NCBI GenBank assembly: GCA_021735655.1
Contig: JAIPGM010000003.1
Location: 214,836-278,835, forward strand
From: Candidatus Omnitrophota bacterium
GTDB lineage: Bacteria; Omnitrophota; Gorgyraeia; Duberdicusellales; 4484-171
Direction of reading: 5' to 3'
Length of the DNA: 64,000 bases
Below are positions 60,512 to 64,000 of the stretch, one piece after another. The notes under the pieces were generated by a model. The model worked only from the letters and a program-made list of their open reading frames with translations. It did no database searches and had not been told where the DNA came from. Position 1 is the first letter of the stretch. The number at the start of each line of letters is the position of its first letter. Position numbers and translations under genes: made by a program.

Positions 60512-60589
60512 CGGGGCGTAGCGTAGTTTGGTTAGCGCGTCTGCTTTGGGAGCAGAAGGCCGGTGGTTCGAATCCACTCGCCCCGACCA
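60512..60589 (+). tRNA. tRNA-Pro (anticodon TGG), CCA encoded
   Basis: Acceptor CGGGGCG/CGCCCCG, anticodon stem TCTGC/GCAGA with loop TTTGGGA (anticodon TGG), T-arm GGTGGTTCGAATCCACT, 3' ACCA. Confidence 0.85.
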
Positions 60590-60593
60590 AATT

Positions 60594-60667
60594 GTGCCCG
60601 TAGCTCAATCGGATAGAGCACCTGCCTTCTAAGCAGGATGTTGTAGGTTCGATTCCTACCGGGCACG
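60594..60667 (+). tRNA. tRNA-Arg (anticodon TCT), no encoded CCA
   Basis: Acceptor GTGCCCG/CGGGCAC, D-arm GCTCAATCGGATAGAGC, anticodon stem CCTGC/GCAGG with loop CTTCTAA (anticodon TCT), T-arm GTAGGTTCGATTCCTAC. Confidence 0.85.
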
Positions 60668-60706
60668 CGTATTTTAATTTAGCAGATTTTAATAGTAGGA
60701 GAAGGG

Positions 60707-62026
60707 ATGAAAAAAATATTGATCATTTTGGTATGGATAGCAGTAATCGTGGTTTTGCTACACGTAGCCCTTTTCGTTTTTATCAATTTAAAGGGTAGAG
60801 ATATTATTATAGCTAAACTTCAGAAGGATTTTGGTAGTGAAGCCCGATTAGAATCTATCAGTTTAAGTTTCCCTTTTGCTATAGAGATCAAGAATTTTCG
60901 GAGTAGTGATTTGTCTTTTAGAAAGGCAAAAGCATCCTTAGGTTTATCTAATCCTTTTAGGCGTTTCCTAATCAGTAATCTTTCCCTAGAAGATCCGGTA
61001 ATCAATGTAACCTTAGATAGAAAAGGAGTCAGAGCTGAACCTATTTTTTCTAAGTCTTGGCGTCAGCGTAGTAAAAAAACTCCTGAAGAAATCAAAGAGA
61101 AACCTTCCCTTTCTGGACAAAAAACCAATTTTGAGTCGAGATCTGTAGAGCCAAGACAAATTGAGAATGAAAGTAAGCCAGCAAGAAAGTTTTCTTTAGT
61201 AATAAAAAATATTTACATTAAGGGTGGCCGAATACAACTTACGAATAGATTAAAACGCGAACCAATAGTTACTATAATTAATAATATAGATGCTTATTTA
61301 AAAAATATTTCCTACCCGGATTTAGAGAAGTTTATTCTAGATATCAGTGGAGCTTTAAAAACTGAAGAGGGGGTTTCTCGAAAAAATATAGCTTTAAAGG
61401 GCTGGGTGGATTATTCTAATAAAAATATGGAGGTAGAATTAGGGCTAGATAAAATAGACTATTCTGCTTTTGAAGACTATTATCCGCCTAATTGGAAATT
61501 GGAAGGTTTAGGGGTCAAAGAGGCCTTACTTTCCCTGGAATCTAATTTTGTTTCTGAGAATAATGATTTAACTATTAAAAATACTTTATTTTTAGATAGT
61601 ATTGAGTATCTAGAGCTGGCTGAAGATCAAGAGGGTAGCTCTCGGGCTAAAACTGTGAAAACAATTTTGGCTTTTATTGCCATGGGTGACAATAAGCCAT
61701 CTTTTAACTTTGTAGTTAAAACTAAGATGGACACTCCTAAAATTGATTTTGCTTCGATAAAAGAAAGCTTTAATACAACTTTTAATTTTGGTTTAGGAGG
61801 TATTTTGCAAGGTGCAGCTAACGTTATGCAGGAGAACGTAAAAGAATTGATAAAAGACAATAAAGAGCTTGGTGCTGACGATGCCGTAGAAAGGATGAAA
61901 GAGACTGGCGAAGAGCTTATTGATGCTTTAAAAGATATATTTATTCCTAAGCTTATAGAGATGGGTGAAGAAGGTGCCCTTGAGGCCAAAGAACAGGATC
62001 ACCCTAATCCGGTAGTAGCGCCTTAA
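60707..62026 (+). CDS. Membrane-anchored protein of unknown function (possibly AsmA-like/DUF748-type)
   Basis: N-terminal TM ILIILVWIAVIVVLLHVALFVF; long hydrophilic region with Lys/Glu-rich segments; 439 aa; RBS GGAGAAGGG. Family assignment is weak. Confidence 0.35.
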   Translation: MKKILIILVWIAVIVVLLHVALFVFINLKGRDIIIAKLQKDFGSEARLESISLSFPFAIEIKNFRSSDLSFRKAKASLGLSNPFRRFLISNLSLEDPVINVTLDRKGVRAEPIFSKSWRQRSKKTPEEIKEKPSLSGQKTNFESRSVEPRQIENESKPARKFSLVIKNIYIKGGRIQLTNRLKREPIVTIINNIDAYLKNISYPDLEKFILDISGALKTEEGVSRKNIALKGWVDYSNKNMEVELGLDKIDYSAFEDYYPPNWKLEGLGVKEALLSLESNFVSENNDLTIKNTLFLDSIEYLELAEDQEGSSRAKTVKTILAFIAMGDNKPSFNFVVKTKMDTPKIDFASIKESFNTTFNFGLGGILQGAANVMQENVKELIKDNKELGADDAVERMKETGEELIDALKDIFIPKLIEMGEEGALEAKEQDHPNPVVAP

Positions 62027-62055
62027 TTTTTAGATATTTTGAAATTTTAAATTAC

Positions 62056-62133
62056 GGTGGATGTAGCTCAGGTTGGCAGAGCACTTGATTGTGGTTCAAG
62101 ATGTCGCGAGTTCAAATCTCGTCATCCACCCCA
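62056..62133 (+). tRNA. tRNA-His (anticodon GTG) with genomically encoded G(-1) and CCA
   Basis: G-1 at 62056 pairing with discriminator C73 (62130); acceptor GTGGATG/CATCCAC; D-arm GCTCAGGTTGGCAGAGC; anticodon stem CTTGA/TCAAG with loop TTGTGGT (anticodon GTG); T-arm GCGAGTTCAAATCTCGT; CCA at 62131-62133. Confidence 0.9.
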
Positions 62134-63559
62134 ATGTTCTTTTTTTACCTTCCAGAAGAAAATTAAACGGAATTTTGTAAGAAAATGAGAGATTTTTTTG
62201 AAACAGCCGGAAGTTCAAACCAATTTTTTCCAAGAATTCTCTCTGGGGGGCGGGGTTTGCCGCCAAGGCAATACAACCGGCTTGGTGAGCAAGAGTTAGG
62301 AAGTTTTTCATCGGTTCGAACCATTTCCCGTCACTGTTTTGGGGGTTAGTTTCCCAATCAACCTTCCTGTTTACTAATTGGTATTTTTTCTTTTTATATT
62401 CTTCCTCAGATATCCCGCCGTCAATATATAGATCAAGCAGTTTTTTGAGCTTCTGGTTTATTTCTTCTATCTTTATTTCAGCGCTGCGCTGGGTGTGGAT
62501 TTTACCGGCCTCAAAAAGCCCGATTTCCCGCTTAAGCTCATTCATCATTAGAGAAAAAATGCCGTCATCAAGCTGAATCGCAAGAATGGCCGTTTTGATT
62601 TGTTCGGTTAGCTCTTCCTCGCGGGTGTATTTCTTCTGAGAACAGGGGCCTTTGCGTTTGGTGCAGCGGTAGTAATTATGCCCTTTTTGGTTCTCGGCGG
62701 TGATTTGACAGCCGCATTCAGCGCAGCGCATAAACCCTTTTAGGGCGAAATACCTATTTTTATGGAGGATAGCTTTACTTTTTAATTTTAAAACTTCCTG
62801 AACTATATCAAAGAGTTCTTTATCAATTATGGGCTGGTGGGTGCCTTGATATAGTTCGCCTTTAAAGGAAAAGGCACCGTAGTAAAAAGGGTTATGCAAA
62901 ATTCTTGCGATATTACTGATAACAAGAGGTTTCTTGAATCTCTTGCTCACCAAGCCTAAAGCAGCCGCCAATTTTTTTAAATCGTCCAGAGTATATTTAT
63001 TCTCAGTGCATAAGAGAAAAAGTTTTTTAACCAGCGGCGCCACCGCTTCATCCACTAAGATTTTGCCTTTGCCGTCATTAGTATAACCGATCGGGGCAAA
63101 GCCCGGGTATTCACCACGCCGTAATTTTTCTCTTATGCCGCGCTTGGTATTTTCACTTAGGTTATCCACGTAATACTTTGATTGGCCGAAGCTGATACTA
63201 AGCATAAACTTGCCCTGGGCCGTATTGTCAAAGCGGTAAGTAGGAAAGCGTAAATCAACGATGTTACCGATGTCGGTGAGGTAAATGATTTTTCCGCCGT
63301 CAATGGAGTTTCTAGCCAAGCGGTCAGGATGCCAGGCAATAATGCCATCGGCTTTACCTTGCTCAATAAGTTTAATCATTTGGTTAAAGACCGGCCGGCC
63401 TGGTGACCTGGCAGTTTTTGCTTCCTGGAATTCATCGATAATGGCCAAACCTTCCTTTTTAGCAAACAGTCTTGTTTCGATTAACTGCGATTGGATAGAG
63501 AGGACTTGCTTATCTTCGGTATCAGTAGATTTACGCACGTATAAAAAATATTTGTTCAT
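62096..63559 (-). CDS. Large serine recombinase (resolvase catalytic domain, recombinase domain, zinc ribbon, coiled coil)
   Basis: N-terminus MNKYFLYVRKSTDTEDKQVLSIQSQ (catalytic Ser in the YxRxST context); ...GIIAWHPDRLARN...; zinc-ribbon CAECGCQ...YYRCTKRKGPCSQK; C-terminal tail encoded inside IR-L, with the stop inside the tRNA-His gene. RBS GGGGG upstream of the ATG at 63559 (ORF track starts 11 codons further up at 63592). Confidence 0.85.
   Translation of the reverse strand: MNKYFLYVRKSTDTEDKQVLSIQSQLIETRLFAKKEGLAIIDEFQEAKTARSPGRPVFNQMIKLIEQGKADGIIAWHPDRLARNSIDGGKIIYLTDIGNIVDLRFPTYRFDNTAQGKFMLSISFGQSKYYVDNLSENTKRGIREKLRRGEYPGFAPIGYTNDGKGKILVDEAVAPLVKKLFLLCTENKYTLDDLKKLAAALGLVSKRFKKPLVISNIARILHNPFYYGAFSFKGELYQGTHQPIIDKELFDIVQEVLKLKSKAILHKNRYFALKGFMRCAECGCQITAENQKGHNYYRCTKRKGPCSQKKYTREEELTEQIKTAILAIQLDDGIFSLMMNELKREIGLFEAGKIHTQRSAEIKIEEINQKLKKLLDLYIDGGISEEEYKKKKYQLVNRKVDWETNPQNSDGKWFEPMKNFLTLAHQAGCIALAANPAPQREFLEKIGLNFRLFQKNLSFSYKIPFNFLLEGKKRTLGWMTRFELATS
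62128..62262. repeat. Left 135-bp inverted repeat (IR-L) of the recombinase element; overlaps the last 6 nt of tRNA-His
   Basis: 62128-62262 is the exact reverse complement of 63733-63867 (perfect 135/135, checked by reading both). Starts ACCCCAATGTTC... (ACCCCA = tRNA-His nt 71-76) and ends ...GGGGGGCGGGGTTTGCCG. Confidence 0.9.
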
Positions 63560-63732
63560 TTTTCTAGCCCCCTTTTTTTTAGATATTAGCAATAAAAATA
63601 AAAATCCAGCCCAAGGTATTTTAGGAATTCTGTTTTAAAAAAAATTGGCGGTTGCTTTGACTCTACCTTAAGGACAGAGGGGCTAGATTGCCTTGGGATG
63701 TGCCGAATGGCGCAAGGCTTGCGGAGCAAGCC

Positions 63733-63867
63733 CGGCAAACCCCGCCCCCCAGAGAGAATTCTTGGAAAAAATTGGTTTGAACTTCCGGCTGTTTCAAAAA
63801 AATCTCTCATTTTCTTACAAAATTCCGTTTAATTTTCTTCTGGAAGGTAAAAAAAGAACATTGGGGT
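63733..63867. repeat. Right 135-bp inverted repeat (IR-R) of the recombinase element
   Basis: Perfect reverse complement of IR-L. Encodes on the + strand the same 45 residues (...ANPAPQREFLEKIGLNFRLFQKNLSFSYKIPFNFLLEGKKRTLG) that IR-L encodes for the recombinase C-terminus on the - strand (ORF 63693..63914). Confidence 0.9.
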
Positions 63868-64000
63868 CCCTATATCAAAAAGTCAGAACCCATTTTAAAG
63901 AAAAATACAAATAACGTCTATTCTTATTTTGATCAGCATTACTAAGTTATCGAATCGCAACTGACCATATCGATATAACCACTCCAGCGACATCTAATAG

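Follow-up and report, generated by a model that had tools for sequence, protein, structure and literature searches.

Analysis of a 64,000-nt stretch of contig JAIPGM010000003.1 from a Candidatus Omnitrophota bacterium (hereafter the window) revealed, close to its right end, a large serine recombinase (LSR) gene lying between the arms of a perfect inverted repeat and abutting a tRNA-His gene. The sequence indicates that this region is probably the tRNA-proximal end of a small integrated LSR element that carries two inverted copies of its attachment site, attP. The same anatomy is common to dozens of uncultured bacteria, the hosts being Omnitrophota, Patescibacteria and other uncultured lineages. 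A full-text literature search found no description of the inverted-attP layout. The features of the locus are as follows.

62057..62133, + strand: host tRNA-His (GTG) gene (ARAGORN; Rfam tRNA, 62.8 bits)
62096..63559, - strand: LSR coding sequence (CDS), with the ATG at 63559 and the stop codon (62096-62098) inside the tRNA gene
62110-62116: tRNA-His T-loop motif GTTCAAA, 12-18 nt from the repeat boundary (motif position statistics, 56 loci); putative attB-type (B) outer half-site of attL
62128..62133, + strand: hexamer ACCCCA, tRNA-His positions 71-76, common to the tRNA 3′ end and both arms (junction alignments)
62128..62262: IR-L, encoding LSR residues 433/434-477; candidate P′-type inner half of attL
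62279..62295 and 62940-62956: perfect 17-nt intragenic inverted repeat (family helix H2)
63008-63021 and 63125-63138: 14-nt intragenic pair
63560..63732, - strand: LSR leader
63635-63658: leader block complementary to CDS positions 62958-62981 (24 nt, 92%)
63693..63914, + strand: mechanical open reading frame (ORF) reading IR-R outward, no Pfam match
63733..63867: IR-R, perfect inverted copy of IR-L; presumed P′ (inner) part of another attP copy, inverted and intact
63868..63890, + strand: attP-type (P) outer half-site; its motif TCAGAAC at 63883-63889 (GTTCTGA on the other strand) is 16-22 nt away from the boundary of the repeat

The arms of the repeat are 135 nt long, 100% complementary and 1470 nt apart (repeat search); since the 135-nt match is perfect within 64 kb, a chance origin is ruled out. 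Arm D denotes the arm lying at the LSR 3′ end (IR-L in the window), and arm U the upstream one (IR-R). The tRNA-His gene is intact, with its last 6 nt (ACCCCA) inside IR-L, so that the tRNA end is regenerated by the element; the crossover dinucleotide may correspond to the first two bases of this hexamer. A search for a displaced tRNA 3′ half beyond IR-R found none. The window ends 133 nt past IR-R, and the cargo and attR of this element would fall outside the visible DNA.

The LSR is 487 aa long from the ATG, or 498 aa from an upstream TTG. It contains the Pfam domains Resolvase (PF00239; 2.9e-21), Recombinase (PF07508; 4.1e-10) and Zn_ribbon_recom (PF13408; 7e-10), and its PDB matches are the A118 integrase and SPbeta SprA. 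An AF2 model predicts a coiled-coil insertion in the zinc-ribbon domain, with long helices at residues 332-379 and 385-404. The initial annotation had proposed that the inverted repeats encode the C-terminus of the recombinase. This was borne out: AF2 modelled residues 414-473 with confidence as a helix/beta-hairpin domain that reaches into the repeat-encoded residues 433-477, and N449 and S448, within that segment, are near-invariant among homologues, all of which supports its being genuine, conserved LSR coding sequence. Coverage of the query by homologues was 96-100%, and the closest of them (L003/P0001, 74%) stops exactly at the junction, having neither the tail nor a second repeat arm. 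The C-terminal extension of ~90 aa had no sequence match in solved LSR structures.

The inverted repeat was found in 70 of 83 related LSR loci, being perfect in 34 and at least 95% identical in 60. The arms have a median length of 105 nt and range from 49 to 197 nt. A half-site measures ~25 bp; the arms are far longer. The 3′ end of a tRNA overlaps arm D in 47 loci and arm U in 2. Outside the arms, the start of the motif GTTCGAA is at -18 next to the tRNA (35/56 loci) and at -23 in the opposite flank (31/56), a constant offset of 5 bp; in the window the starts are -18 and -22, that is, an offset of 4 bp rather than 5. A 5-bp displacement of this kind has been published as the mark that distinguishes attB- from attP-type half-sites in serine integrases (PMC3783163), and on that basis the flanks were typed as attB-like and attP-like. 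The classifiable junctions were of three kinds, B-arm, P-arm and P-host; in most loci (41), a P-type flank at arm U was combined with a tRNA (B-type) at arm D, and L040 and L077 had P-type flanks on both sides. A search of the arms for GTTCGAA-type motifs found no recognisable copy, and a P′ half-site role is attributed to the arms from their position only.

Longer loci contain a further inverted repeat (IR2; 156-459 nt, 94-100% identical), which is formed by the P flanks and brackets a small cargo segment. It overlaps the arm repeat (IR1) by exactly the tRNA hexamer and ends in an attR-like arrangement of P, hexamer and unrelated DNA. A single 289-nt inverted repeat covers arm, hexamer and P in L032. 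Distal attR-type junctions with cargo in between were seen in L051, L066, L067, L070, L075, L031 and L125, the last of which has the exact 23-nt P half-site of the window plus ACCCCA in an attR-type context. The cargo between the IR2 arms consists mostly of defence genes (GmrSD, AbiE, HEPN/MNT, AAA_21 plus RloB, DpnI, HTH/ImmA). Where related elements lie in unrelated surroundings, their homology is confined to the stretch between the tRNA and a point ~40-120 nt outside arm U. The two arms of one element are identical, but those of sister elements are ~80% identical, a pattern of concerted evolution. Comparison with a phage collection by blastn gave the tRNA as the sole match, and IMG/VR contained few close relatives, located at contig ends; these searches thus gave no evidence that the elements are phages.

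[quoted passage not shown] The whole attP would be carried twice, as an inverted repeat flanking this gene. One copy would have recombined with tRNA-His, generating attL (tRNA joined to IR-L), while the other (IR-R joined to the P flank) would still be intact; cargo and attR would be expected past the end of the window. On this reading, the LSR would catalyse attP x attB recombination. The IR1 plus IR2 layout would imply a circular form in which the LSR target lies in two inverted repeats, although no closed circle was recovered.

Because there is no stop codon before the putative crossover, the ORF reads on into whatever DNA lies outside the arm. Next to the tRNA it would acquire one tail (tail 1); next to the P half-site, as in a free form, upon use of the other attP copy, or after flipping between the 135-bp arms, it would acquire another (tail 2). 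Recombination between two attP sites, or between attL and attP, is not known for serine integrases, so flipping would have to use homologous recombination. The LSR of L002 is oppositely oriented at a syntenic tRNA-His, and L117 and L118, 99.8% identical, differ in that the LSR 3′ end joins tRNA-His in one and the other flank in the other. L117 and L118 come from two samples, and a free form, a flipped form or an alternatively integrated form are all compatible with L118.

The reading of the two frames given in the initial annotation was essentially correct. The minus-strand ORF does pass through IR-L and stop within tRNA-His, ending in ...RTLG-WMTRFELATS*, its residues 478-487 (62099-62128; tail 1) being an antisense read of the tRNA acceptor/T arm. 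The plus-strand ORF 63693..63914 encodes the same residues and then a different tail (...ANPAPQ...RTLG-SLYQKVRTHFKEKYK*); read-through of the P half-site gives the start of tail 2 (SLYQKVRT..). This ORF is not likely to be a gene in the plus orientation, and tail 2 could come from it only by fusion with the body of the LSR. The geometry proposed for the inversion also holds, joining of the LSR body to the IR-R copy exchanging WMTRFELATS for SLYQKVRTHFKEKYK. The same frame is open in both arms as claimed, but the shared residues amount to 44 complete codons (434-477) plus two partial ones, not 45, owing to the frame offset between the arms. Alternative C-terminal isoforms are real in relatives: P0199 (...EQLG-WVTGFEPATP) and P0200 (...EQLG-SRHQRVRTYFKGYPLK) belong to one 90% protein cluster and differ only in the tail.

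The arms might have a different main function. A possible, though on balance unlikely, reading is that they serve chiefly as the stem that closes an intrastrand fold of the whole LSR cassette, formed in mRNA or in single-stranded DNA, whose role would be to regulate or protect that cassette, with att function being secondary or additional; this is compatible with the att-site interpretation. Exact complementary blocks between leader and CDS numbered 113 versus 0.9 expected, with 61 of 63 consecutive pairs nested, and intragenic blocks of at least 13 nt numbered 313 versus 1.4 expected (0 in 18 distant LSR genes). Six consensus helices arranged around a multi-branch junction showed compensatory changes, Watson-Crick pairing being 62-79% versus 14-55% when the partner was slid. 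The locus without a second arm, L003, also lacks the blocks. In several loci the arm stops 9-37 nt short of the ATG, a distance at which transcripts must contain the arm. However, pairs on the sense strand showed no excess of G-U over A-C (244 versus 257; internal mismatches, 9 versus 17), so ordinary mRNA structure is not supported, and an Rfam search at E<=1 matched the tRNA and no other structured RNA family. The window itself holds only three such blocks, and the blocks of the family could have a mutational origin, by template-switch ‘perfection’ of quasi-palindromes inside a large hairpin. Taken over the cassette, the conserved complementary blocks suggest an additional role beyond that of the att-site model.

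A broader proposal, which we put forward tentatively and regard as rather less probable than the two-attP interpretation of the window itself, is that a widespread class of minimal LSR cargo elements exists in Omnitrophota, Patescibacteria and other uncultured phyla in which the last ~45 integrase codons form half of attP, and in which a homogenised inverted attP duplication creates two segments, as in the 2-micron plasmid, and integration occurs at tRNAs in either orientation. The integrase cassette would be one nested fold, with the arms as the closing stem, the leader as a patchwork of segments copied in reverse complement from the CDS, and perfect, co-varying helices in the ORF. Its effect would be exerted at the level of DNA or through both strands, for instance in a single-stranded intermediate of transfer or replication, or through expression that limits itself.

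The initial annotation had further suggested a shufflon-like logic applied to the recombinase itself, that is, a programmed switch in which inversion is selected and gives the LSR two C-terminal isoforms differing in activity or directionality. Near-identical LSRs do exist with both isoforms, and tail 2, which contains a (V/I)RTxF motif, varies rather little in length (10-32 codons, mostly 13-19). The conservation of tail 2 is, however, accounted for by the DNA motif underlying it: TTCGAAC translates as ..(V/I)RTxF.., just as the tRNA antisense translates as ..GFEPAT... Tail 1 varies from 0 to 115 codons on the tRNA side of relatives and is missing in the closest one, and that of the window is predicted to be disordered (residues 474-487, pLDDT <50 in AF2). 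The open frame said to be maintained through both repeats is indeed found in most loci, but the upstream arm is decayed or frameshifted in L013, L037 and L075, where it has indels and stops. In a clade with a 1-nt indel (L010, L011, L017-L019, L025, L028, L041), the frame is broken only in the innermost ~10 nt of the arm, which favours neither view. The same holds for a comparison of synonymous with non-synonymous differences in the diverged arms of L002, L005 and L077, where 12-16 differences change 6-7 amino acids and create no stop. One orientation greatly outnumbers the other, 47 to 2, and where the LSR lies in opposite orientations at tRNA-His, the hosts have a neighbouring protein only 29% identical, against 63% for the LSRs, which fits independent integrations. 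Conserved alternative C-terminal cassettes, as present in invertase switches and shufflons, were not found, the tails being unconserved. There was thus no sign of a selected tail-swapping device, and a programmed switch appears improbable. The tails are best read as translated recombination half-sites, by-products of read-through into flanking DNA, and the tail swap is probably incidental.

It is far less probable still that the LSR gene alone, with its 135-bp terminal inverted repeats, is an IS-like transposon inserted after tRNA-His. An arm-LSR-arm unit did assemble alone, as a 1771-nt contig (L058), and the same hexamer ends both arms. Nevertheless, the flank past arm U is conserved between elements and bears the attP-type motif, with IR2, cargo and attR located further out, and in no locus was host DNA present on both sides of the arms. 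Neither do the dinucleotides flanking the repeat form consistent direct repeats, as would fit a Tn4451/IS607-type element, and insertions are confined to tRNA 3′ ends. Simple arm-LSR-arm excision was discarded likewise: neither a direct repeat of a dinucleotide just outside the repeat nor a palindromic dinucleotide within it was consistent across loci. A landing-pad model, with a resident LSR cassette and both flanks attB-like, was also rejected, the non-tRNA flank being P-type and travelling with the element.

That the repeat is an assembly artefact (a chimeric fold-back) is scarcely credible: arm length is near assembler k-mer sizes and many related contigs end at or near the repeats, but the layout recurs whether SPAdes or MEGAHIT was the assembler and is present in long contigs as well as one complete genome (CP174360.1; L038), the four junctions are all distinct, some loci have imperfect arms, and repeats longer than k would be expected to break contigs. 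Contig breaks at the repeats were for this last reason also discounted as evidence of flipping.

Genome engineering prizes serine integrases as one-way tools whose sites are simple and 40-50 bp long. A large natural family with half of attP inside the integrase ORF would widen the known design space of integrative elements, as would a second, inverted attP and the targeting of the universally conserved T-loop/CCA end of tRNAs. The elements are a likely route by which defence genes are exchanged in Patescibacteria and Omnitrophota, two groups in which little is known of mobile elements. Dense, co-varying and perfectly paired helices are unusual in a protein-coding gene; if functional, they would subject a recombinase gene to two constraints at once, those of protein and of nucleic-acid structure, which is rare.

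The integrases of Listeria phage A118/LI, Bxb1 and phiC31 have the same domain set as the LSR of the window (Resolvase, Recombinase, zinc ribbon and a predicted coiled coil). The attB and attP sites of the LI integrase differ by a 5-bp-displaced outer motif (PMC3783163), as in the loci described here, and the junctions found would fit attL, attR and attP. In contrast to those three systems, attP appears here to be doubled and inverted around the integrase gene, with the P′ half being integrase coding sequence; the repeat measures 50-180 nt and stays near-perfect, the target is the T-loop/acceptor end of a tRNA, and the protein has a ~90-aa C-terminal extension. No directionality factor was identified for elements of the type found in the window.

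The yeast 2-micron plasmid carries FLP target sites (FRT) inside two long inverted repeats, and FLP recombines the two identical sites. The present elements resemble it in having two long, homogenised inverted repeats that would contain the recombinase target, and two unique segments in either relative orientation. Unlike FLP, serine integrases do not normally carry out attP x attP recombination, and the element described here integrates at a tRNA, a free circular form being hypothetical here. The Hin, Gin and Rci systems use crossover sites of ~26-31 bp, small invertases or a tyrosine recombinase, and conserved alternative C-terminal cassettes. As in these systems, inverted repeats flank a segment whose inversion would alter a protein C-terminus; unlike them, the enzyme is an integrase-type LSR, the tails are unconserved read-through products, and the flanks are of the attB/attP half-site type. 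In the case of CTX-phi, attP(+) is a hairpin of two inverted XerCD sites in single-stranded DNA, at which XerC exchanges one pair of strands. The inverted attachment-site copies of the present elements could likewise pair within one strand into a duplex site, and complementarity at the DNA level without G-U bias would fit a stage of single-stranded DNA. Unlike XerC, a serine recombinase cuts all four strands and would leave chromosome ends capped by hairpins, and a single-stranded stage is here hypothetical.

The ‘suicidal integrases’ of the archaeal SSV type are tyrosine recombinases with the att site inside their own ORF (PMC7253208). The likeness extends to a recombination site within the integrase ORF, an integration event that alters the product, and a tRNA target. 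In the SSV-type systems the gene is split in two, whereas here only an unconserved tail, beyond the last conserved codon, would be exchanged and a second attP kept. Finally, tycheposons are small, site-specific integrative elements whose targets are tRNA 3′ ends and whose cargo is defensive or otherwise adaptive, a minority of them driven by LSRs (bioRxiv 10.1101/2020.12.28.424599). The elements described here share with them integration at tRNA 3′ ends, defence cargo and the use of an LSR; they differ from tycheposons as described (bioRxiv 10.1101/2020.12.28.424599) in the apparently duplicated, inverted attP, in the structured integrase cassette and in belonging to other host lineages.

The recombinase gene in the window runs into one arm of an inverted repeat whose end lies in a tRNA gene:

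62057–62133, tRNA-His gene, its last six bases (ACCCCA, the hexamer, common to both arms) inside IR-L
62128–62262, IR-L, left arm of the repeat (135 nt, 100% complementary to IR-R; repeat search)
63733–63867, IR-R, right arm and partner of IR-L, with 1470 nt between the arms (repeat search)
63559 (ATG) to 62096–62098 (stop), minus strand, large serine recombinase (LSR) gene, 487 aa, stop within the tRNA-His gene

A domain search found Resolvase, Recombinase and zinc-ribbon domains in the LSR. Its residues 433/434–477 are encoded by IR-L, and residues 478–487 (WMTRFELATS) are the tRNA read antisense; reading outward through IR-R yields the same 44 codons and then SLYQKVRTHFKEKYK. The coordinates of the repeat, the tRNA and the LSR reading frame thus bear out the geometry described in the initial annotation, in which both arms are read in frame into differing tails.

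Eighty-three non-redundant loci came from scanning one genome per species and the contigs carrying close homologues. The repeat was present in 70 of them (34 perfect, 60 with at least 95% identity; median arm 105 nt). Arm D denotes the arm at the LSR 3′ end (IR-L in the window), arm U the one upstream of the LSR start (IR-R). In 47 loci arm D, and in two loci arm U, overlaps the 3′ end of a tRNA gene (His, Ser, Gln, Asn, Ala, Arg, Lys, Trp, Gly or Asp), and both arms invariably start with the final ∼6 nt of the tRNA. In L022 (1787–1880) and L038 (7479–7570) the arm abuts an intact T-arm and acceptor end, yet ARAGORN called no tRNA; the tRNA there may be interrupted or atypical (Asn-like 3′ end GGAGCCA). 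Three further loci (L004, L007 and L031) contain 3′ tRNA fragments only.

Outside arm D, on the putative attB-type flank, the T-loop GTTCGAA starts at -18; the flank outside arm U, a putative attP-type half (P), is conserved between elements and has the same motif starting at -23. In serine integrases, the distal (zinc-ribbon) motif is shifted by a constant 5 bp between attP and attB half-sites, which tells the two apart (PMC3783163). No recognisable distal motif was found in the arms, whose length far exceeds that of a half-site. When related elements lie in unrelated genomic contexts, homology is confined to the stretch from ∼40–120 nt outside arm U through to the tRNA, indicating that the P flank travels with the element. 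Arms are identical within one element and ∼80% identical between sister elements, and are therefore continually homogenised. The second arm is wholly absent from L003; the duplication is therefore not essential to the enzyme.

Since the window reaches 133 nt past IR-R, the cargo and attR are known from relatives alone. Where the upstream sequence is long enough, an inverted second copy of the P flank lies 1.3–5 kb further out (IR2; 156–459 nt, 94–100% identity). IR2 and the arm U/arm D repeat overlap by exactly the tRNA hexamer, and IR2 terminates in P-hexamer followed by unrelated DNA. The order is host / hexamer′-P′ / cargo / P-hexamer-arm / LSR / arm′-hexamer′ / tRNA. Judged by sequence, the classifiable junctions would be tRNA-arm (attL), P-host (attR) and P-arm (attP). 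Arm, hexamer and P all fall within one 289-nt inverted repeat in L032, and in L040 and L077 both flanks are P-type. A metagenome scan with the P half-site of the window identified a locus (L125) where the same 23 nt and ACCCCA lead into DNA that is not arm sequence and carries a terminator, a probable attR context.

The cargo consists mostly of defence genes (GmrSD, AbiEi/AbiEii, HEPN/MNT, AAA_21+RloB, DpnI, Xre/ImmA), with a multicopper oxidase in one locus. In L037 (2491–5821) the genes between the inverted P flanks are enolase, CrcB and DUF190-like, that is, housekeeping rather than accessory cargo, and the repeat possibly captured or inverted host DNA. No tRNA was called in L084 (950–11610), where modules follow one another in a chain that resembles a stepwise build-up of defence cargo: 318 nt of the LSR 3′ end and arm, copied directly; a 459-nt inverted repeat of the P flank that encloses GmrSD/AbiE cargo; and, next to HEPN/MNT and caspase genes, 175 nt of the arm-D outer flank, directly repeated. 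In one MAG, VGJO01, the arms of two distinct LSR cassettes are joined to an identical P-type flank of ∼90 nt (L060, 1–121; L077, 7478–7597), and the L077 cassette is P-flanked on both sides; this points to exchange between elements or to an unintegrated form.

In many homologues the C-terminal end, ...LGW(V/L/M)TGFEPAT, is the tRNA acceptor/T arm translated antisense. Across loci the true tail past the repeat spans 0–115 codons; in the closest relative (P0001, from L003; 74% identity) the stop lies exactly at the junction. Tails read from the other flank have 10–32 codons, mostly 13–19, and a common motif, (V/I)RTxF, which is TTCGAAC translated. Clusters formed at 90% include LSR proteins differing in the tail alone, and L117 and L118, with 99.8% identity over 1581 nt, differ in what adjoins the LSR 3′ end: tRNA-His in one, the P flank in the other. 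At the sequence level, these cases are direct evidence that the same LSR can exist in both tail states. The initial annotation had raised inversion between the repeats as a possible device for exchanging the LSR tail; this reading is partly supported, with the exchange as a consequence of the layout, both tails being found in near-identical LSRs, but not as its purpose.

Query coverage was 96–100% in the best 120 homologues of the window LSR, mostly from Omnitrophota MAGs, and conservation reaches as far as the ...LG encoded by the outermost part of the arm. Alignment to solved LSR structures (A118 integrase, SPbeta SprA) ends near residue 395. An AF2 model built from 107 sequences contains a confident C-terminal domain (helices 414–432 and 436–446, hairpin 447–461, helix 465–473), with pLDDT <50 for residues 474–487. 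Given this conservation and the model, the repeat codes for genuine protein sequence, a domain that is specific to the family and predicted to fold, with the tail as a disordered appendage.

The cassette also contains complementary blocks, three of them in the window:

63635–63658 / 62958–62981, leader / CDS
62279–62295 / 62940–62956, inside the LSR ORF
63008–63021 / 63125–63138, inside the LSR ORF

Between leader and CDS, 67 loci had 113 exact complementary blocks of at least 12 nt (0.9 in shuffled leaders) and no same-sense matches; 61 of 63 consecutive pairs were nested. The leader (63560–63732 in the window) is a patchwork in which short CDS segments recur as exact reverse complements, their order nested, and some blocks span the RBS/ATG (in L001, -4 to +17 pairs with +283 to +304). 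Within the CDS, 313 exact blocks of at least 13 nt were found in 70 loci, codon shuffling reducing them to 1.4; 18 distant LSR genes had none, nor did L003, which lacks arm U. At L003 (1–460) the LSR start directly adjoins a methyltransferase-like ORF, and arm loss and helix loss coincide. Six helices occupy the same columns of the codon alignment, with compensatory changes, and form a tight multi-branch junction (codons ∼205–445); Watson-Crick pairing in them is 62–79%, against 14–55% with the partner slid. An Rfam search matched no family. G-U and A-C mismatches are equally common in the blocks, which argues against ordinary sense-strand RNA structure and for complementarity at the DNA level or on two strands. 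The blocks are possibly functional, in fold-back control of expression or in a single-stranded intermediate; alternatively, they are mutational, arising by template-switch ‘perfection’ inside a large hairpin.

The simplest account of the layout is a canonical LSR integrative element in which the integrase gene lies between two inverted copies of attP. IR-L of the window would be the inner half of attL, and IR-R with the P flank an unused attP. The LSR could then lie in either orientation next to the tRNA, through either attP copy or by flipping between the 135-bp arms, and either tail would follow from the orientation. To our knowledge, serine integrases do not act on attP x attP. The LSR of L002 is opposite in orientation at a syntenic tRNA-His (same tRNA-Pro, tRNA-Arg and DUF748 neighbourhood). 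The LSRs of the window and L002 are 63% identical and the neighbouring DUF748-like host proteins 29%, so independent integrations are as likely as in-situ inversion. The tRNA-Pro, tRNA-Arg, DUF748/AsmA-like protein and tRNA-His neighbourhood is itself kept between these distant Omnitrophota (60512–62133 in the window; 6681–9746 in L002). Downstream of tRNA-His in L117 (2130–2260) lie tandem ∼60-nt repeats, the unit containing the tRNA 5′ end (GAGCTACACCCACC...), which may be left over from past integration or excision. A search of the full-text literature found no description of this layout, and the feature is best filed as a variant form of the serine-integrase integrative element.
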